From Naegleria gruberi (taxonomy: Eukaryota), in the NCBI GenBank assembly GCA_000004985.1, contig GG738867.1: a stretch of DNA of 64,000 bases. One strand, written 5' to 3'. The position numbers and the translations under genes were made by a program. Below the pieces are notes generated by a model. The model was given only the letters and a program-made list of their open reading frames with translations, did no database searches and had not been told where the DNA came from. Shown here one piece after another: positions 1,208-47,467 of this stretch (within the stretch, counting starts at the first letter, position 1; every line of letters begins with the position of its first letter).

Positions 1208-4200
1208 TTGCAAAACAAAATGGAAGACATGTACCTGTGGGATGAAGATTTGATGGAGGCTCTTCATCAATCCAATATCGATCATTTTGCCACTAATAAA
1301 TCATCAAGCAACTCCTCCAAGCACAACAAGAACAGCACAGATTGTATTGAATTCTCCAAATTAGAGTTTGGTAATTTCGATGATCGAGAAATGACCACCT
1401 TCCGAAGGGTAACCACTCGACACTCCTTTCATGATGTTCATTCGACAAGTTTCAAGGTATATTGGAAGGAAGGTGGTGATTTTTCAGTCTTCTTTCTGAT
1501 TAAACCTCATCATCAGTTTTGGATTGAAATCAATAGAAACATTATACGGAAGGTAATCATTGTTGATAATGAAAGTATTGCCATTGTACTGGATCAGGCT
1601 CCAAGTGTTCACAGAAAACGTGATGGTGATGATAACAAGACAAGAATGGCTGCTCCAACTGATAAAACTACTCAGGCACATAGTTTCTGGTTGCACAATT
1701 TCAATGTGACAAAATCTCTGCTCCTCTCTGGTATTCGATATGAGCATGTGGAAATTCTCAAAAGTAAGACTTCAAAGACACACTATTTATATGGAACAAA
1801 ATCATGTACAGCTCTAACAATGAAGGATGTGAATGGTATGGATTGGAAGGGCCAATTGAATATTGAGCTTGGTATTCCATTTCATACCATGTATTTATTA
1901 TTGTGCTTGAATTGTAAAGTTCCTGGCTTACTTGCTAGTTATGAAAGATTATCAGAGATTAAGCAACTCTTTAATGAATTGAAAGATAGTAACAACAACT
2001 CATATGACTTGGTGAATGTTGCTCTGGAAAAGTGTTTACAACACGAAGGGTTCTTTCCTTCAGAGTTTACTACTCTCTTCAAAAAACATTCTCACAAACG
2101 CCAACACAAAAGCTTTGTAAAGGTTGATGACAATATGTTTGAAATCAGAAAGGTAATGATCACACCAACAGGAATCAAGTATTTCCCAAAAATCCTCGAA
2201 TCTGGAAATCGAGTCTTGAGAAAATACAAGCAATACGAAGATAGATTTCTCAGAGTGACATTTTGTGATGAGGGTCTTAATAGAGTTAGCGCTGAAAAGG
2301 TCACAAACATGCACCCTCGATTGGAGGAATTCCTTAATAATGGTTTTACTATTGGAAATAGACATTATGAGATGTTGGCCTATTCGAATAGCCAACTCAG
2401 AAGTCATAGCTGTTGGTTTTTGAATACGGAAGGAATTCGTGAACTGTCAGTGAGTTCTATCATTGAAGGTCTTGGTGACTTTTCTGATATTAAAGTAATG
2501 GCCAAATATGCTGCAAGAATTGGTCAATGCTTTTCCAATACTTTCAATGGTATCAAATCAGAATTTATAGAAGTAAATGATATTGTCTATCGAGAAATTG
2601 AAAGAAATGGGGACATTAAGGAAAACGTTCTCAATGACGGATGTGGCCGAATGTCTGTAAGTTTTGCAGAACAGGTTAGCAAGCAAATGAAAATTAGAAT
2701 TCATGGCAAAGCCTACATTCCATCAGCTTTACAATTCAGATTGGGTGGCTATAAAGGGGTAGTAGTACAAGATAAGGATGTTGCTGATATATTTGGAAAG
2801 GATCTGGTTCTCACTAAGAGTCAAAACAAGTTCAAGGACGAAAAGAGTGATGAATTTGAGATGGTAGCCTTCTCGAAACGTCCAAAGTTTTCCAGTCTCA
2901 ATAGACAAATTATTATTCTACTTTCCTCCAATGGCTTGCCTGACAGTGCCTTGATGAAATTTGTAGATAGAGAGATAGAGACTTGGAGGTCAAGAACAAC
3001 AAAAAAACTGAGTATTAGAAAGTTACTGAGAAAGGTGTGGGAAAATGTGGTTGGTTCGAATATCAAAAAGGTCATTTCATCAGAGTATTTAGATCTCAAA
3101 GCTCAGGTCCTTGCAAGTCAGGTCAAAGGAATGTCACAACAACATGTTGAATACTTTTACAATGTTGATCCATTACTCTGTACTCTATGCGATAAGATTT
3201 TGATTAACCAATTCTCCAGCTTGAAAACAAATCTTCCAGTTGATAAGTGTTCACTATTGATGGGTGTTGTTGATTTTTATGGAGTGCTAGAAGATGACGA
3301 GGTTTTTGTACAACTTTCTTCATTTGAGAGCTATGAAAGAGATTTATATGATCCTGGCTCGTATGCTGAAGGTGGAATAGTGAGTGGAAATGTATTTGTT
3401 ACAAGGAATCCTTGTCTTCACCCAGGAGATGTTAGAAAGTTTAAAGCTGTCAGTGATGACAGAATTAATGTTCTCAAACATTTGAAAGATGTTATTGTAT
3501 TCAGTCAAAAATCAAAACAATCCCAGGCTAGCAAGATGAGTGGAGGCGACTTGGATGGGGACCTTTTCATGGTGTGTTGGGATCCAGAGCTTTTAAATTT
3601 CACAGAACATAAACCAATGAAACACACTCAACTGAAACCTTTGGAAAAGAATGATGGTTTTGATTATAAGGCAATCAGAGATTTTCTTAAGGAGTATGTT
3701 GTGAATGACAATTTGGGAGTAGTTGCTTTTATGCATATGGAACACTATGATCAATCTTCAAAGGGAGCACTCGATCAAAACTGTTTGGATCTTGCTGATT
3801 ATCACTCTCACCAAGTTGATTATGCCAAGACTGGTGTTAGAAAGGCCTTACCAATGGAGCTGGTATCAGAGTATAGACCTCACTATATGCCAAAAAGTTT
3901 CATGAAGAAGACTTATCATTCAACCAAAATTATAGGAAAGAGTAAGTTATTGAGAATTTGATTTTTCTAACCACACAACAGTTCATGATAAGGTTGAGGA
4001 ATTTATGAAATCAAACAAAAAATTGAAAGAGAAGGTTAAAGAATCCGATCCCTTCCATCCACATTTTAAAACTTTGGATCTATTATTTGTAAAATACAAA
4101 CCTCTACAAATGCTTTTCATAGAGCATGACCAATTAAAGGAAGTGAAGAATGCCAATGAGGACTCTTTAATAACCAAAGATATTGCGGATATTTACAATT

Positions 4201-4553: not shown

Positions 4554-4604
4554 GATTTATTCGTAAATATTTAGAGAATTCTTCATTAAACAAATTTATT
4601 AACA

Positions 4605-5293
4605 TCAACAAGGTCTATTCTTTTTACCAAGATACTGACTCACATCAAATAATAAGTTTGGCCTCTCATGAAGAGCTTGATTGGCTAGGGAAGTTGGAAT
4701 CATTCCGTTGGGATTTGATTGAACCATCATGGTGCACTTCACATCATTGTCAATTTGATAAAATTTGAACAATGTGAAATAGTTAGTTCCTCTCACTAAT
4801 GACTTGTCATTAGAATTGAATGAATAATAATCATCAATAGAGGTACTCAACCATCCTATGTATTCATTTGAATGGATGGAATGACCAACCAGTATGAAAT
4901 CTCGTTCAGAAACAAAACGAGCTGTTGATGATATTTAAATATTGGAAAGTTCAGAAGAAACTACTTACATGGTGAAGAGAATATAAAATGTCTTATACTC
5001 CAACTATCAATTCTCTCAATTTCCTTGAAATATTTGGCCTTCTTATCATAACTCTTCACTACTTCCCAATCTGGTGTTTCGAATAGCTTTAAAATTTGGT
5101 CAACCTTACAATTTTCCGCAATCGTCTCACCCTTAATCACAATTCCCCTCTCAGAATCGCCTTTGTAATGAGAAATGGCTACTCCATTAACATCTTCTAA
5201 ATATCCTTCAAATTCCTTCTCTGCATACACTTCAGCGTTCTTCAATTCAACGTTCCAATGTTTTTGGATTTCTTCAATTTTTACTTTTTGCAT
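4605..5293 (-). CDS. START/Bet v1-like lipid-transfer domain protein, 2 exons: 4969..5293, 4608..4921
   Basis: C-terminal START signature SNPNGMIPTSLANQ. A 47-nt intron (4922..4968, GTAAGT..AACAG, phase 1) joins ORFs 4961..5293 and 4605..4850. The family call is moderate. Confidence 0.5.
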
Positions 5294-5517
5294 TTTGTTT
5301 TTTTTTAATTTGTTTACAGATTTTCTTTAAATATTGTTGGGAGAAGAATTATTATTAGAATGAAGTGGAGGTTAAATAATAGTACGTTGCCATTTTGTTA
5401 CCATTTATACACCAATTATTTATTTTTTTGTAATCTATTTTGTCAATTCCGAACTATTTAATAGTATTTAATATTTAAATAATATTAAATAAAATTGTAT
5501 TTATATTAAAAAAAAAA

Positions 5518-12922: not shown

Positions 12923-14086
12923 ATGCTCAGCTCATCCAGCAAATCCTCCTCATCGTCAGATCAGAGAATCATCTCATTTTCCATCAATAAGAAGGAAATT
13001 ATTGAAAAATTCCCACCATCCTTCTTTTCCAAAAACAAAGTCTTTCTCTATTCTCTACACTCTGATCAATTGGATTATGAAGGTGATTTAATTTATTCGA
13101 GATTTAAAGCAAGGACTCGACCAAAAGCCTATAAGAAGGAAGTTGCAGAAGATCAGGTGTGTGAGGTGATTGTTTCAAGTGATGGTTTCAAGTATGATGA
13201 AAAGTTGAAGGTTGGGGAGGAGAATGCCAAGCATTGGTATTTGAATTTTGCAGATGAGAGATTGTTTATTGCTTGGAAAGGTCAATTGTTTGCTCAGGAT
13301 GAGATTCAAGTTTGTGAACATCCAATTTTGGGAAGTTTGTGTGAATATTTGAGAAAGGAAAGTTTAAATGATGCAAGATATAGTCCAATAACTCAACAAA
13401 CATCTCCCACTCCAGTATTGATTCAGAATGTGGATAGAAGAATTGCAGTCAATGTTAAAGACTATAATATTTATGGAAATAACTTTGCCAAGGCATCTAC
13501 TGATATTATTGAACAAGCAACAACTGTTTTGGACATGAAAACGAATAGAAAATCAAATATTTTGGCAATTAGTGCACCTAGGTAGGTTTTGGATTTGAAT
13601 TTCTCATATTTGAAAATATAGAGGTGGACATGGAGAGTACAAATTGGGAGAAGTTAATTTCATATTCGATACTTTATATAGTGGATTTAAGGCATGTTGC
13701 ATGGATACTGAAATGTATGCCCAGGATCCAGAAAATCCACCAACTGTTGTCATTCACACAGGTAATTTTGGTTGTGGTGCCTTTGGTAACAATAGAGTAA
13801 GTATAATTGTTGAATAGAAATGGAAACTAATCTTTTCGAATAGGAATTGATAGCAATTCTTCAAATATTGGCAGCAAGAATGGCAGGTATCAAGTATCTA
13901 TATTATCATGCATTCAGTGAGGAAGGTGTAAAATCTGTCAAAAAGGCCATTAAGGTAATTGATGAAGAATTTGATTTGGTATGCAAAGATCCATCCGATA
14001 TAGAAGGTAATTTAGTTTCCCTTAATAAGCTTTTCGATATGATTTTACAAAAAGGATATAAATGGGGTTTTTCCGATGGAAATTAA
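12923..14086 (+). CDS. Poly(ADP-ribose) glycohydrolase (PARG)-like protein, 3 exons: 12923..13581, 13622..13796, 13844..14086
   Basis: Exons 2 and 3 encode HTGNFGCGAFGNNR|ELIAILQILAARMAGIKYLYYHAF, which matches the PARG signature TGNWGCGAFGGD..LKALIQ.LAA.......Y.TF. Introns are 13582..13621 (40 nt, GTAGGT..ATATAG) and 13797..13843 (47 nt, GTAAGT..AATAG). The ATG at 12923 is in an A-rich context. Confidence 0.5.
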
Positions 14087-33386: not shown

Positions 33387-34445
33387 TTACTTTCCAAGTC
33401 TTTTGTTATCCTCTTCAATAAGTTCCTTATAATATCCCTCCCAATCAATTTTCATATTTCCTCCATATTCGGTTGCCAATTGATCAGCATCAACATAGTT
33501 CAACAAATCTTGTTGCTTGTTCACCATGACGTACTTGGCTTTGAGTTCTGTAGATAAAAAGGCGCTGAGGAAAGCCCAAATAATATTAATAGTCCAAGGA
33601 GCATTCATAATCAAGACTCTACCCAATCTTTCAGGATAGTAAAAACCCAAATCATCAAAAATATCTTTCTGTAATAATTGTTAAAAGTCTCTCCCCTAGC
33701 TAACACTTACCATTCTTTTAACCAAGGACAATGAAATTGCAGAAACATCAACAATCCAATTCATTTGGAATGCTGTTCCTTTAAATTCTCTTCTTCTGAA
33801 ATTTCTTTCATGCAAGTAAACCAAATGACGGAACTTGAGCTGTTTGTTTTCCTCGGAATTATCCAACAAATCCTTGTTTGTCCACATATAGAAAATAGGC
33901 ATATCATTTTGACAAATACCTTGATCAATCATCATATTAGAAGTACATGTTGTGTTAGTAAATTCTTCCATTCTAATCTCCTCTGGTTTATAAACAGCTC
34001 TCCAATTAACCATTTTCACAATCAATCGAGTAGCTTCATCCAATTTCCATTCAAACCCTCTGGAATATCTGAAAAAGGCAAAATTATCCAAAGTCAGCTC
34101 TCTCAGCTCATTCCACTTATCGGCATCAATTTGTAATTCATTCTTTTCATTCTTTACCAACTCTGGAATATTCTCCAAAACATTTATACCCATAAATCTC
34201 TTTACAATCTCATCACCATCCTTCACAATCACACGGATCACCATCATCATCAAATTATGAATAAATTTTAATTTTTCATCATTCATCACCGGAGAAACAT
34301 AAGTTGGATGAAGATCGCACATTTCCTTCAGTGTTGGTAAGTCAACAAGAGTTACTAGTTGTTGATCAGCAGCAGCAGATGATGATGATGATGAATTTAC
34401 TGCCTGATCAGAACATAAAGATGACGAAGGAACAAGTCGCAACAT
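33387..34445 (-). CDS. Sec14/CRAL-TRIO phosphatidylinositol-transfer protein, 2 exons: 33711..34445, 33390..33668
   Basis: N-terminal FAFFRYSRGFEWKLDEATRLIVKMVNWR (CRAL-TRIO_N). The C-terminal exon encodes GFYYPERLGRVLIMNAPW...ATEYGG. A 42-nt intron (33669..33710, GTAAGT..TTACAG, phase 0) joins ORFs 33696..34445 and 33387..33650. Start is in an A-rich context. Confidence 0.75.
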
Positions 34446-37158: not shown

Positions 37159-38274
37159 ATGATGGAACTGCAAGTTTTAAATCGCATTTCAAAGAAAGTA
37201 GACGAAACTTGGAACAAAAAAATGTCTGCATTCGAATTACCAGACGATATTTGGTTAGAAATTATTTCATTCCTAGATTCTCACGATATTATCAAAAATT
37301 GTTTTTTAATTTCAAAACAATTTTTGGGTATTATAAAAAGTTATTCGAAACTTTCCATACGAGTGAAAGCACCTTTGCATGGAACAATTAATATTTTATT
37401 AGAAACCTTGTTGAAATCATTTTCCGGGAGAAACTTGACGAAACTTGATCTGAGAAGAAATTTTATTCATGCAAAATTGGCAGAACATTTAGGGAATTTG
37501 CACCAATTGACCGATTTAAATGTTGACGATTCTTTTATTGTAGAACCTGCAATTGATTCTATTCGCTACTTGACTAAACTGTCAACACTTTCGATCAATT
37601 CTAATAATTTAAAAACAAAGGAATTGAAAATTATCAAGGAAATGAAACAATTAACAGTTCTATCGATTGCAAAGAATTCAATGCAATCTGGAGGTGCTAA
37701 ATTATTACGAAACCTTTCCAATTTGACTATTCTAAATATTTCGAATAATCGAATTGGAAATGAAGGATGGAAATATTTATGTTCAATGAAACAATTAACC
37801 AAACTAAACATTTCTGGTACTAACATTTCTTCTGAAGGAATTTCATACCTAACCAACTTTCCAAATTTAACAGAATTGAACTTTTCTGGAAATACCAGTT
37901 TGAGATTTTCTCAAAAAGTACAAGAACAATTGAGTGAATTGAAATATTTAACGAAACTTGTCATCAATTACATCCATCCTATTCCAATTGATGACCTTCA
38001 ATATATTCACAAATTAGAGAAACTCACCAGTCTTTCTCTCAAATCTAATTTCATGTACGATGCGTCAGCAATTCACATTTCAAAGTGTGAGAAATTAACC
38101 TATTTGGATGTTGCAATTAATAATTTGAGTGATGCTGCAGCAGAAGCATTTTCTCATCTACCAAATTTGAAATATTTGAATATTTCTGAAAATTATCTTT
38201 CCAAAAAAGGAGTCGAGCTATTACGTAACATGCCCCAGTTGACCAGTTTGATTTATGAAAGCGAATTGTTATGA
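37159..38274 (+). CDS. F-box/leucine-rich-repeat (RI-type LRR) protein
   Basis: N-terminal LPDDIWLEIISFLDSHDIIKNCFLISKQF (F-box), followed by about 10 LRRs of the L..L.I..N.IG.EG type. Confidence 0.6.
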   Translation: MMELQVLNRISKKVDETWNKKMSAFELPDDIWLEIISFLDSHDIIKNCFLISKQFLGIIKSYSKLSIRVKAPLHGTINILLETLLKSFSGRNLTKLDLRRNFIHAKLAEHLGNLHQLTDLNVDDSFIVEPAIDSIRYLTKLSTLSINSNNLKTKELKIIKEMKQLTVLSIAKNSMQSGGAKLLRNLSNLTILNISNNRIGNEGWKYLCSMKQLTKLNISGTNISSEGISYLTNFPNLTELNFSGNTSLRFSQKVQEQLSELKYLTKLVINYIHPIPIDDLQYIHKLEKLTSLSLKSNFMYDASAIHISKCEKLTYLDVAINNLSDAAAEAFSHLPNLKYLNISENYLSKKGVELLRNMPQLTSLIYESELL

Positions 38275-41327: not shown

Positions 41328-43052
41328 TTACAAGGTAAAGAATGAAAGAATAATCAAAAGCAATACCATCGCAATGCTTGGATGACTAATTAATTGTCCA
41401 TCATTGACTCTATCAGGATTTGTTGAATTTTTGGCAATGACACCTGTTGTGAAAGAAGTGGTTGGGTTGACTGAAGAGACAGCTGCTGGAACTTCTACTT
41501 TAAGCAGTTGAGCTGAAACAGTGGATTCCTGGTTGACTCCACTGGTAGCAAAAATACTTCCCCAACAACTGGAAGAAGGCCAAGTAAATACGAAACTTTG
41601 TCCATTATTCAAGTTTCCACTATCGATATTGGAAAGATTTCTACAAGCTAAATTGATATAAAATCTAAATTGACCACCACCAGTTGTAATTGCAGTGATA
41701 TTGTACAATTGACCAGAAGTTGGCTTTGCCCACAATGTTTTTGAAAGACCAGTTCCATTCGTATTTCTTTGAGAAGTTTTAGAAGTTCTATTCGAAAAGA
41801 CAACTGCTTGTTTCCATGTATCGAAATATCCCAATGAACCTCCATATTCCAATGCCCATGGACCTCTCATGGAAATTAAATTTTGATTCAGACTGAATTT
41901 AATTGGCTTATCTTCACCATTCAAATATCCTGAACATGATTTGAGAGGTCTGAGGGCAGCTCTAATAACTTGCAATTCATAGGCAGCTTGATTACTCCAT
42001 CCACCCGGATGCAATGTGTAATTACTTCCAATTTCAACATAGATATTGAATGGAGTTCCTGTATTTCTGTCTGTAACGTAAGCTCCATAAGTTTTCAGAG
42101 TTTCAGCAATTTTTCTCAATTTTGGAATGGTCAATGATTTGGTTACGTTGAAATCTGAAGGAAGCATCAATAAACTGCCTTCTGGAATTGTTCCATAATT
42201 GGTAGCGGCTGCATCACCATCAGCAGCTGTGGCTGGCCAAACATAGGTTGGATTATTGGACAAACCATTAAATGTCATAGACAAGGTCAATGCATGTCTA
42301 TATTGTGAATCACCATCATCAACTTCATACTTTCTAATCAATCCAGCAGAGCTAGGAACACCAGTGGCTCTAGCTCCCTGATAGAAGAATGCAGGAGTTC
42401 CCCAACCAACACCATCAAGAGCTGACCAACCATACAATGCTGCACGCCATGTTCCATTCACATTCTTCAATTGCCAGAATGAGTGAATTACTTTATCAAT
42501 TGGATCAAAAATTTCACAATGTCCTATTCAAGTACAATCATTGAAATTCAACACACAACAAATTCAACCAATGAAACACAAAGTTAAATAAATGACAAAT
42601 AAATGAACTAAACTTACCATCACTTCCACTTGCTGGTAAAGTATTAGATGGCCAACGAGGAATTGTAACACTCGTTGTAGATCCACCAATATCAGCAATG
42701 GCAATGCCAGTATTTGCAGATGGACCATAAACTAACTTGGAGGTATCATCTGCAGAAGCAATGAAAACACCAGTTGAGTAAATACCTTCACCAATGGCTG
42801 GATAGAAAGAAGATTGAGGAACAGTCTTGGAATCGTCTAAAACTGGGTTGACTGGACGACTATTCCAAGGAGAGTTGGCAGAGAATGGTCTGTAAACGCT
42901 ACCAAAAGGATAAGTAGCTGCTTGAATGACTGTTGTGTCATACAGGAATATGTCTACACACACAAGTCAAAAAGTCAGTTGCCAAAAATTAACTTACAAA
43001 TTGCTAGGAACAATGTAACGAGTGACAATCTAACGTATCTATTAACTTTCAT
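41328..43052 (-). CDS. Secreted, predicted GPI-anchored protein of unknown family, 3 exons: 42998..43052, 42618..42953, 41331..42523
   Basis: Exon 1 encodes a signal peptide, MKVNRYVRLSLVTLFLAI. Introns are 42954..42997 (44 nt, GTAAGT..GTGTAG) and 42524..42617 (94 nt, GTAAGT..GAATAG), with consistent phases. The C-terminus is a hydrophobic stretch (SIAMVLLLIILSFFTL) after an S/T-rich region. Many N-glycosylation sequons. Confidence 0.5.
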
Positions 43053-43505: not shown

Positions 43506-45350
43506 ATGAAAATTACCGATTTGGATCACGATTCACTAGATAACATTCTTTCCTATTGTCCCCATCGGGCATGTTATGAAATTCAATCGATGCGAGAAAC
43601 ATGTTCGGGATGGAATTTATTATTTCGAGGTGGAGGTGGAGAAAATACAAATTTAATAGGGAACAATGGAGCGGAATTGATCGGAGAAGGAAATTCACTG
43701 GGAAAGATGGTGAAGGAGAGTGTTAGAAGTTCAAATTTGATGAAACGAGTGGAGGAAATGTATTTGCCTCGAGTGCACTTTCGTATTTCTGTGCCAGTTA
43801 GTAATGATGATAGTGAATTGGATTCAGAAATTGTTGATGATCAATCGATTTATTGGGAATATGTTCAGGAATTTAAAAAGATATTTGGGGATTCTGTTAG
43901 AATAGTTTCGGATTCAGAGTTGGAAATTGATTTTGAAATGGAAGAAAGTGTACTGCAGAATTTGGAAGAGGTAATTGAAAAGGATGTTGCTGTTAAAAAG
44001 AAGGAGGACTTGGTGACCTATCTCACAAATCGCTCAATCAATGTTGATACTTGCAAACTTTATCATGTTGTGAAAAAAATCGAACATGAAGAGAGAGAAC
44101 TATCGAAACACATTACATTGGTTGACTTGTTTAATGATTGGAAGAATCAACCTATTTTGAATAAGGAAATGAAAGTGAATCCATGTAGATTATACAAGAA
44201 GGTCATTCTTCATTTAATATTTACTAATACCTATGATACCAATACGAAAGATATTCATTTAAGCAGAGAATCAACAATAATTGCTTCAAATAGACGTGCA
44301 AAGGGATTTATATTTCCATACCGTACTAGAGATGAAATTAATTTCAGTTGGGGAAGTGTTAGTATGGATTACGAAGTAATTTACAAATTTAAAAGTAGGA
44401 ATGAATCAGTAGAAGATAGAACGAGAATAATTGTGTACCATTTACTGAGAAACAAATTAATTCCTGTAATGAATGAGACACTCATTGATTTGAAAAAATT
44501 ATTTAGAAAGGACTTGTTGAACTATGTCAAAACTTTGGAAAGTGAGGAGGATTTATATTACTTCCTCACTGTGAGGGAGAATATTTTGAAAAGATATAGA
44601 GATGGGCTCTTGAGTGGAAAGATCAAATTTCCAGATTTTACAAATGACAAGTTTAATTTCCAAGTTGACAGTTTCATTATTCCACAATTTCTAAATCTCG
44701 TTGGATTAGAAAGTATGGACAATAAGCAACGAGGACAATTCCTCAAACAATTATTGAAACACATTTACAAATCTCAAGTATTACTTTCAGATGAAGCCCT
44801 AGAGGAATATTTTGAAAAAATGCAAATTGAGAGAAGAGAAAAATTTGCCATTACAGAAACTGAACGATTGAATGTTAGTTTCGAGAGAATATTCTTTGAA
44901 AGAGAAACGTCTACCATTTTTCATCATTTAGTTTCCTTTCCCTCCTTTCCTTCAATTAGTTTAGAGAAAATTGATGAAGATATTCCAAAAGAACAAACTC
45001 TAACCAAATTGACCAGTACTGGTCAAATTGACAAATGTTGGACACGAGCATGTTGCATGAATAGGGTATGTGGAATCTGTAATTGTTGTGCAATATTATC
45101 ATGTTGGTGTGCAACCAGTTGTTGCTGTTACACTCAAGATTCGAATGCTGATACAGTTCAAACAGTAAGAGGATTAGGATTACCAACATGGGTTGGATGG
45201 ATGTTCAATTGTATCTGTTGTTATAGACATCGAATATTTCCAATGTTGGATTGTTTCAATTGTGTTAATCAATGCTTTACTGTTAAAGATGGAGTGGATG
45301 GTGTTGAATATAGATATCAGCGTATGTATCTAGAAAAGAAAAACATGTAA
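43506..45350 (+). CDS. Hypothetical protein with F-box-like N-terminus and C-terminal Cys-rich cluster
   Basis: LDNILSYCPHRACYEIQSMRETCSGWNLL is F-box-like. The C-terminus is CWTRACCMNRVCGICNCCAILSCWCATSCCCY. Confidence 0.45.
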   Translation: MKITDLDHDSLDNILSYCPHRACYEIQSMRETCSGWNLLFRGGGGENTNLIGNNGAELIGEGNSLGKMVKESVRSSNLMKRVEEMYLPRVHFRISVPVSNDDSELDSEIVDDQSIYWEYVQEFKKIFGDSVRIVSDSELEIDFEMEESVLQNLEEVIEKDVAVKKKEDLVTYLTNRSINVDTCKLYHVVKKIEHEERELSKHITLVDLFNDWKNQPILNKEMKVNPCRLYKKVILHLIFTNTYDTNTKDIHLSRESTIIASNRRAKGFIFPYRTRDEINFSWGSVSMDYEVIYKFKSRNESVEDRTRIIVYHLLRNKLIPVMNETLIDLKKLFRKDLLNYVKTLESEEDLYYFLTVRENILKRYRDGLLSGKIKFPDFTNDKFNFQVDSFIIPQFLNLVGLESMDNKQRGQFLKQLLKHIYKSQVLLSDEALEEYFEKMQIERREKFAITETERLNVSFERIFFERETSTIFHHLVSFPSFPSISLEKIDEDIPKEQTLTKLTSTGQIDKCWTRACCMNRVCGICNCCAILSCWCATSCCCYTQDSNADTVQTVRGLGLPTWVGWMFNCICCYRHRIFPMLDCFNCVNQCFTVKDGVDGVEYRYQRMYLEKKNM

Positions 45351-45445
45351 ATACGAAACCTTTGGTCTTTCCGATAGAATTTTGCAAATGTCTCATTGTG
45401 GTGTTGACAACAGAACTGTGACGAAATAAAAAGATTGTCTTGAAT

Positions 45446-46714
45446 TCACTTAAATTGGCAGTTCTTTATGTTGTGTGATAATAATATTTTCAAATTATCA
45501 CTAAGTGAAATTTTCCCTCCATAAATATAAAGCAGTTTTAAATTTTTCATTTCCAAAAAAGATTGGGCACCTTCATCTCCAAATTTGTTAAATCTCACAT
45601 CCAATTCAGTCAATTGACCTAATTCGCTTAAATATTTAGCTCCCTGATCTTCAATCATATTGCTACAAATAATTAGAATTCTCAATTATTTCATTCCACT
45701 AATAAATTTACAACCTTCATCTCCAATTGAATTCTCAGAAATGTCCAAACTAGTCAAATTCTTCATTTCACTTATTGAAATAGTTTCCGAAGGTCCAATA
45801 GAATTGTACATAATGCTTAGATTAGTCAAATTATTCATTTCACTTATTAATTTTGCCTTCGCATGGTAAATTCCATTTTCATCAATTCTCAAACTTTTCA
45901 ATTGATTCATCTTTATGAGATGGTTGATTCCTGCGATTGTAAAATTATTGAATGCAATGTCAATTTCTAATAATTGATTCATCTTGCTAATATAATTCAA
46001 ACCTTCATCATCTATATAATTACTACACAAGTTCAGTTTTGTTAATTTTTTGAGTTGACTAATTGATTTGGCTTCTTCGGTTCCAATTTCATTTCTATTC
46101 AAGTAAAGTTCTTCTAATTCGTTTAATTCATTAATAAACTTGGCTATTTCAGATCCAAATCTGGTACAATTAATAGATAGCTTTTTCAATTGTTTCATTT
46201 TTCTAATTGATTTCAATCCTTCAATGTCAAATTCACAAAATAGCAAATCTAGATCCGTAACTTGATTCAGTTGACTAACATTTTCTAATCCTCCAGTTGG
46301 AAACACACCATTGGTAATACTTAATGATGTTAATTGGTTTAAATTGCCTATAGATTCGGATTCCTTAACACTAATCTCGCCAAATAAACATAATTTTAAA
46401 GCAGTCAACTGTCTCATTAATTTAATGACTTGCCAAAAGTTCTCTCGATTTTTAATTCCATTAAATGAAAGTGAAATTTCGATATTCACAATTCTGTCTA
46501 GAAATTGGCTCTTCTGCAACATGGTTACAGTTTAATCACAGCAAGCTAGGAATAAAATGTCAAGTTTCGAATAATTTTTAACTATTTTAAACCATTGCTT
46601 GGAAATTAAACAATAATTATTTAGTATTAAATATGAATTATCAAGAAAGGACAAAATTTCAAAGCAAATATCATCATTAAATATTTCCTTCACCTCAGTT
46701 TCGTTTACTTTCAT
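45446..46714 (-). pseudogene. F-box/LRR protein interrupted by two in-frame TAA codons (candidate pseudogene or sequence error)
   Basis: ORFs 46532..46714 (F-box: ICFEILSFLDNSYLILNNYCLISKQW), 45686..46522 (about 10 LRRs) and 45446..45685 (LRRs) are all in one frame, separated only by TAA codons at 46532 and 45686. The second TAA sits where the repeat consensus has Q (MKQL/MNQL), reading ISGMK*LRILIICSNMIEDQG. Confidence 0.45.
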
Positions 46715-46930
46715 TTTTTTAAAATATTAATTCTAATAATCTCAAAAGCAACATCACCACTACTCGAATATATTTCACCTAAAACTAATGAGAATTTAAA
46801 TGTTTCCTAACAAGTTACTAATAATTCTGTTAATTTTCCCAATTTGGAAATTGTTCATTTCCAATAATTAATTTCTCTATGAAAAAAACAGAACAACCAC
46901 AAGAAATCTTTAAACTAACTATTATTAGGA

Positions 46931-47467
46931 ATGCCCAATAATATTACTGCTACTAGCCACAAATCCTCTCCCGTTCATCATTCCCTAACTTTACAACTTG
47001 TTTCCATCACCAAAGATCCGGACACAAACTTTATTCTCGGACACAGCCACTTTATAAAAACAGTTGAAGATTTGCATGAAACCATCTTCTCTACCAATCC
47101 AAATATCAAATTTGGAATTGCATTTTGTGAAGCAAGTGGAAAGTGTTTGATTAGAACTTCAGGAAATGATCAGAAATTGATTGAAATGGCAATTCTCAAT
47201 GCAAACTTGTTGAGAGCAGGACATACTTTCATAATCATGATTGAGAATGGATTTCCAGTTAATATTTTGAATTCTATTAAGAATGTTCCAGAAGTTTGTA
47301 GAATTTACTGTGCCACTGCTAATCCTACACAAGTCATTGTGTGTCAAACTGAACAGGGAAGAGGATTGATGGGTGTAATTGATGGATCAGAGTCGAAAGG
47401 AGTAGAAACTGAAGATGATGTAAAGGACAGAAAGGAATTATTAAGAAATATTGGTTATAAATTGTAA
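46931..47467 (+). CDS. Small conserved-looking hypothetical protein (178 aa)
   Basis: Clean ORF with GHSHF, IKFGIAF and GHTFIIMIENGFPVNILN motifs. Family not confidently identified. Confidence 0.35.
   Translation: MPNNITATSHKSSPVHHSLTLQLVSITKDPDTNFILGHSHFIKTVEDLHETIFSTNPNIKFGIAFCEASGKCLIRTSGNDQKLIEMAILNANLLRAGHTFIIMIENGFPVNILNSIKNVPEVCRIYCATANPTQVIVCQTEQGRGLMGVIDGSESKGVETEDDVKDRKELLRNIGYKL

Follow-up and report, generated by a model that had tools for sequence, protein, structure and literature searches.

Analysis of a 64,000-nt stretch of nuclear DNA of Naegleria gruberi NEG-M, contig GG738867.1 (the window), identified a gene of the F-box-like/LRR type that is interrupted by two in-frame TAA codons, and our data indicate that it is most probably a copy disabled by nonsense mutation, either a young pseudogene or a null allele. 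Judged by its sequence, the locus is an unannotated member of a large, expanded N. gruberi family of F-box-like/LRR genes. In the translation of the window, the frame runs on the minus strand from the ATG at 46714 to the TGA at 45446..45448, comprises 422 codons, and contains exactly two internal stops, both of them TAA, at codons 61 and 343 (Table 1). Given the base composition of the window (A 0.337, T 0.330), chance would place approximately 31 stops in a frame of 421 codons, so the colinear arrangement of the three ORFs left by the two stops (60, 281 and 79 codons) is not random. The claim of an earlier note on this DNA that three ORFs are colinear in one frame was therefore borne out, with only the two TAAs lying inside the 422 codons.

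The interrupted frame fills a complete gene slot between NAEGRDRAFT_49040 (43506..45350, +), which is convergent with it at a distance of 96 nt, and NAEGRDRAFT_67515 (46931..47467, +), which is divergent from it at a distance of 217 nt. UniProt accessions are positional in the window and jump from D2VF62 to D2VF64 across 45351..46930; a gene model D2VF63 may lie in this interval. The convergent neighbour, NAEGRDRAFT_49040, gave no Pfam match, and its approximately 90 C-terminal codons (about 45030..45300) are unusually Cys-rich (CWTRACCMNRVCGICNCCAILSCWCATSCCCY…CICCY…CFNCVNQC). The divergent neighbour, NAEGRDRAFT_67515, is a PF04008 adenosine-specific kinase protein (E 3e-74). The PF04008 family is mostly prokaryotic, and lateral acquisition of NAEGRDRAFT_67515 is possible.

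Table 1. Coordinates in the window of the interrupted F-box-like/LRR frame and of its parts.
Feature	Position	Strand	Description
Whole interrupted frame	45446..46714	-	422 codons and terminal TGA; colinear homology to P0001 and P0002
Piece 1, codons 1-60	46535..46714	-	F-box-like N-terminus (FNDDICFEILSFLD...CLISKQWFKIVKNYSKL) and start of linker
First premature TAA, codon 61	46532..46534	-	Next base A; in the variable linker that joins the F-box-like region to the LRR domain
ATG of Met65	46520..46522	-	Met common to 4 of 5 paralogs in alignment A1; possible start of an F-box-less product
Piece 2, codons 62-342	45689..46531	-	Conserved linker motif MLxxSQFLxxIV, followed by the majority of the 24-residue LRR units
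Second premature TAA, codon 343	45686..45688	-	Next base T; falls where the repeat motif MKQL has Gln
Piece 3, codons 344-422	45449..45685	-	About 3 further LRR units and C-terminus, colinear with the P0002 C-terminus
Terminal TGA of the ancestral frame	45446..45448	-	From translation

Three LRR profiles scored above their Pfam cut-offs at the locus: LRR_6 (1.7e-20, 71.8 bits against a cut-off of 23.4), LRR_8 (2.9e-19, 69 bits against 27) and LRR_14 (55.4 bits against 40). The repeat spacing is 24 residues through ten consecutive units. The Pfam match to the F-box stayed below the threshold, with E values of 0.096 (whole protein) and 0.013 (N-terminus only). Against the F-box profiles (PF00646 / PF12937), the N-terminus by itself scored 15.8 bits (cut-off 20.5) and 14.3 bits (cut-off 24.3), and a profile search of the PDB returned FBXO42 alone (E 0.35). 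Among the N-termini of the family, five of six gave F-box-like Pfam matches, the best with an E value of 7.7e-5. The earlier description of the locus as an F-box/LRR gene thus holds for the LRR part, while its F-box part falls short of the Pfam threshold.

The nearest proteins are N. gruberi paralogs, with 32-38% identity over the longer alignments. In a tblastn search, P0001 (518 aa, 'predicted protein') gave a single match at 46684..45506 that crosses both TAAs (residues 12-424, E 2e-39), and P0002 (NAEGRDRAFT_45222, 461 aa) likewise gave a single match across both, at 46747..45530 (residues 9-451, E 8e-40). Relative to the intact homologs, codons 61 and 343 are premature in-frame stops that lie inside paralog-aligned segments. 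Another paralog is found 8 kb away in the window itself, as an intact F-box-like/LRR frame of 371 codons at 37159..38274 (+) with 31% identity to the interrupted gene and with Pfam matches to LRR_8 (4.6e-24) and F-box (8.5e-4). Read from the first ATG, this frame has no exact counterpart in the protein collection, and the annotated model may differ. The architecture of these three paralogs and the order of its elements are those of the interrupted gene: an F-box-like motif (DDICFEIxSFLD...LISKQWF), a MLxxSQFLxxIV linker and MKQLTxL repeats of approximately 24 residues, colinear over the full length with 31-38% identity. However, P0001, P0002 and the 37159..38274 paralog are uninterrupted ORFs, whereas the interrupted copy is broken by two in-frame TAAs and has no entry in the protein collections. 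Piece 1 is 35-45% identical to the N-termini of the paralogs, with E19, I20, S22, L36, S38, K39, Q40, K50 and L51 invariant, and the N-terminal alignment shows the first TAA flanked by conserved family motifs, DDICFEIxSFL…LISKQWF…SKL on the N-terminal side and MLxxSQFLxxIV on the C-terminal side.

Searches for the protein itself or for a second copy of the locus were negative. No protein resembling the locus was present in either of two protein collections, in which the best identities were 52% and, by an exhaustive HMMER search of 1.84 billion representatives, 50%. Neither the ORF pieces nor two alternative models matched any deposited protein exactly. A protein-guided metagenome scan yielded no closer copy of the locus, and scanning for an exact DNA pattern, the first base of the stop being set to N, yielded none. 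Elsewhere in the window, NAEGRDRAFT_67490 (~4600..5300, -) falls into the same 90%-identity cluster as P0258, a protein of 110 aa from an ENA metagenome contig of 4,559 nt. This clustering indicates that a very close relative of the strain is present in a public metagenome, which might give comparison sequence.

A structure model was made with AF2 from the conceptual read-through product, with X at both stops. The model is one continuous LRR solenoid of alternating strands and helices, with a mean pLDDT of 84, a pTM of 0.82 and a pLDDT above 90 in 258 residues. Over piece 2 the pLDDT is mostly above 90, and the ten-residue blocks around residue 343 reach 97. Beyond the second stop, the solenoid goes on for three strand-helix units, with beta strands at residues 346-348, 370-372 and 394-397 and block pLDDT values of 83-97 over residues 341-400. 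The F-box-like region was poorly modelled, with a pLDDT below 50 for residues 1-38. A Foldseek search with the modelled solenoid returned RipG4, ribonuclease inhibitor and FBXL2 (E 4.7e-15 to 2.7e-12, TM 0.58-0.72). The solenoids of FBXL-type SCF adaptors (FBXL2-SKP1, 6o60), of GALA/RipG effectors (RipG4, 9j7j) and of ribonuclease inhibitor are like the modelled one, and the F-box-LRR proteins of the FBXL and RipG kinds also share with the interrupted gene an N-terminal F-box-like motif ahead of the LRR domain. They differ in that FBXL2, RipG4 and ribonuclease inhibitor have a sequence identity of only 16-21%, and in that the F-box match of the interrupted gene is sub-threshold and its F-box-like region poorly modelled. 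The proteins of the family are putative substrate adaptors of the SCF type, with a solenoid like those of RI and FBXL proteins.

The second TAA lies in the context AGTGGAATGAAA TAA TTGAGAATTCTA, which reads 'ISGMK*LRIL'. A motif scan of the other 11 repeat units of the gene found at the same position CAA in five, CAG in one, AAT in three, GAA in one and AAA in one. The best paralog reads CKFLCGMKQL where the interrupted gene reads CKFISGMK*L. Furthermore, the 12-mer ATGAAACAATTG (46187..46198, eleven repeats upstream) differs from ATGAAATAATTG (45683..45694), which holds the stop, solely by C in place of T. The repeat register, the best paralog and this pair of 12-mers agree with the earlier placing of a TAA at 45686..45688 where the repeat has Gln, and a CAA-to-TAA change is well supported from the sequence as the most parsimonious origin of the second stop. 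The first TAA lies in the context GCTTGCTGTGAT TAA ACTGTAACCATG ('LACCD*TVTM'), and in the alignments the paralog residues in or close to this column are E, N, Y, N or T. Because the linker is variable among the paralogs, the ancestral codon of the first TAA cannot be inferred (GAA, TAT, AAA and CAA are all possible). The proposal that both stops arose from CAA was thus upheld for codon 343 and not for codon 61.

The interrupted frame has kept its coding character. It contains no frameshifts and its repeat register is intact, and the in-frame codon-usage scores of its three pieces are 0.175, 0.268 and 0.213, in order, compared to 0.300 +/- 0.103 for the coding chunks of the window. A gene that still functions would show this complete lack of frameshifts and these near-normal coding statistics just as readily as a very young pseudogene would. 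The gene is also prone to stops by its composition: its 420 sense codons offer 231 one-step routes to a stop, 21 of them by transition, and 13 of these 21 are CAA to TAA. Two stops would be expected after approximately 2.6% neutral divergence.

The use of TAA as a stop in this DNA was assessed with the 34 long non-shadowed ORFs of the window. TAA terminates 22 of them, TGA 9 and TAG 3, and the commonest terminator contexts, TAA-T (10 ORFs) and TAA-A (9 ORFs), are identical to those of the two internal stops. In the uninterrupted ORFs, CAA occurs 543 times in approximately 15,000 codons, and CAA-rich ORFs of 800-900 codons are free of TAA. Six ORFs of the window (178-805 codons) correspond exactly to deposited N. 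gruberi proteins of one 424,055-bp scaffold and contain no internal stops. A variant code in which UAA specifies Gln, or a UAA that is leaky in general, was excluded by the stop usage and by the long uninterrupted ORFs. The 100 nt downstream of each TAA folded no better than shuffled sequence (z 0.29 and -1.12), an Rfam scan for a readthrough element gave nothing relevant, no tRNA genes were found in the window, and comparison with the terminators of the window revealed no leaky context at either TAA. A literature search returned nothing on UAA readthrough in Naegleria and nothing on pseudogenes of the F-box-like/LRR family.

Possible introns were enumerated as all GT..AG pairs of 20-600 nt that span each TAA. 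This gave 58 candidates that keep the frame for one stop and 49 for the other, most of them, although not all, with lengths that are multiples of three; examples are 46539->46498 (42 nt), 46582->46514 (69 nt) and 45711->45640 (72 nt, exactly one repeat). The statement in the earlier note that no GT..AG intron can remove either TAA is literally wrong, as dozens of in-frame pairs exist, yet its conclusion that splicing does not remove the stops stands, because a GTAAGT donor is missing and conserved coding residues would be lost. Both GTAAG and CTAAC are absent from the whole interrupted gene. In the window, the intron at 4968..4922 (-, 47 nt) was verified, as its spliced product equals EFC44709.1, and it has a GTAAGT donor. 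Further likely introns, with lengths that together with the verified one span 40-47 nt, are at 3942..3981 (+), 13797..13843 (+), 33669..33710 (-) and 42954..42997 (-), all with GTAAGT, and the 40-nt intron has CTAAC right before its acceptor.

The earlier note had offered three causes for the two stops, namely a young pseudogene, sequence errors and readthrough, and the evidence favours the young pseudogene over a double error and still more clearly over readthrough. If both UAAs were read through or decoded as Gln, a 422-residue protein would be made and the locus would be a functional 'pseudo-pseudogene'. One stop does fall exactly on a Gln position, the sequence downstream is perfectly preserved, and some other protists decode UAA as Gln. 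However, a stop at a Gln codon is the plain outcome of a C-to-T transition in CAA and so gives no evidence for Gln decoding. The dominance of TAA among the terminators, with A or T as the next base just as at the internal stops, its absence from the CAA-heavy ORFs of 800-900 codons, the lack of a downstream structure, of an Rfam element and of a tRNA gene in the window, and the silence of the searched literature on such readthrough in Naegleria all argue against bypass, and serial readthrough of two stops would multiply two small efficiencies. We consider bypass highly improbable for these reasons. Just as little likelihood attaches to the wider proposal that the gene is still functional, whether by site-specific UAA bypass or Gln insertion or by the use of the stops as a regulated switch among an F-box-only peptide, an LRR-only protein and a full-length adaptor. 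In 'pseudo-pseudogenes' or genes with programmed readthrough, such as Ir75a of Drosophila sechellia, an in-frame premature stop likewise interrupts an otherwise intact coding sequence; the N. gruberi locus differs from them in having two UAAs in a normal terminator context and no stimulatory context or structure. Small unrecognised introns that splice out both stops would also rescue the full-length product, and in-frame GT..AG pairs of 42 and 69 nt around the first stop and of 51-75 nt around the second are available for this, the 72-nt pair removing exactly one repeat with the register kept. Such register-keeping pairs are expected by chance in a periodic repeat, however, and the candidates have neither the GTAAGT donor nor the CTAAC branch site, unlike the verified and likely introns of the window. 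They also encode residues of MLxxSQFLxxIV and CKFIxGMKQL that are conserved among the paralogs, and splicing is hardly a credible escape from the stops.

If the stops came from sequencing or assembly error, both sites would be sense codons in the organism, and two bases of the reference would be wrong. Each change is indeed a single base, and the metagenome and DNA pattern scans recovered no second copy of the locus for comparison. The chance of two stop-creating consensus errors is nevertheless approximately 3e-5 at an error rate of 1e-4 and approximately 3e-7 at 1e-5. There are no Ns or gaps in the window, and the six neighbouring ORFs are uninterrupted and exact to deposited proteins. The N. 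gruberi assembly is presumably based on multi-fold Sanger shotgun sequencing, for which we know of no systematic C-to-T errors. A double error is accordingly quite unlikely in our assessment. Partial function of a truncated gene is unlikely as well, although it has several observations in its favour. Here a 278-residue LRR-only protein would be made from Met65 (46522) to the TAA at 45686, and the second TAA would serve as a new, earlier terminator. Four of five paralogs keep Met65, the coding statistics of the 278-codon ORF are normal (0.268), and the annotated P0006 (NAEGRDRAFT_77817, 339 aa, LRR only) starts at the equivalent Met, its residues 2-339 aligning with 46522..45524. On the other hand, the ORF is unannotated and was found in no protein library that was searched, and the truncated solenoid would lack the last three repeats and the C-terminal cap. 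The 79 codons past the second TAA are still in frame, LRR-like and homologous to the P0002 C-terminus, and this preservation indicates that the shorter end would be recent and not an established design. Initiation at Met65 would also be expected to suffer from the 60-codon ORF upstream of it, unless transcription came from a new promoter. As for P0006, its start at the Met65 equivalent may mean that F-box-less members are genuine, or that its own F-box exon was missed or was likewise disabled.

Disabling by nonsense mutation is thus the preferred explanation, and it would have proceeded by two point mutations to TAA in a member of the family. One of these mutations, almost certainly CAA to TAA, would have struck the Gln codon of an MKQL repeat motif, and the other a codon of the variable linker right after the F-box-like region. 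Since UAA terminates translation normally and efficiently in this organism, a ribosome that starts at the original ATG would stop after 60 residues, and no full-length protein would be made. Either the locus would now be a young pseudogene of the unprocessed kind, or the reference haplotype, taken from a heterozygous strain, would carry a null allele. The N. gruberi strain has been reported to be heterozygous (PMC9928731). The absence of frameshifts, the preserved codon usage, the intact repeat register and the confident solenoid past the second stop suggest that the disabling was recent. The two stops, the homology running through them, the standard code, the missing canonical splice signals and the retained coding character are results of the analysis; we infer that the organism really carries the stops, that neither is bypassed, and that the gene has lost its function. 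The locus resembles the unprocessed pseudogenes of duplicated genes in birth-and-death families, which likewise occupy their own gene slot and have premature stops relative to intact paralogs while other coding features are kept; this likeness is one of sequence features.

The interrupted gene also serves as a caution. Where a genome is AT-rich, a single mutation can create a stop at more than half of such a gene's codons. In a gene this prone to stops, a TAA at a 'conserved Gln position' is an ordinary product of CAA-to-TAA change and not a sign of recoding. The phenomenon is an ordinary one that matters little beyond annotation, and it would be of interest only if the stops were proved to be bypassed in vivo. 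For the family, the locus would be one more unannotated and recently disabled member of a lineage-specific group of genes, which fits the birth-and-death turnover expected of it.
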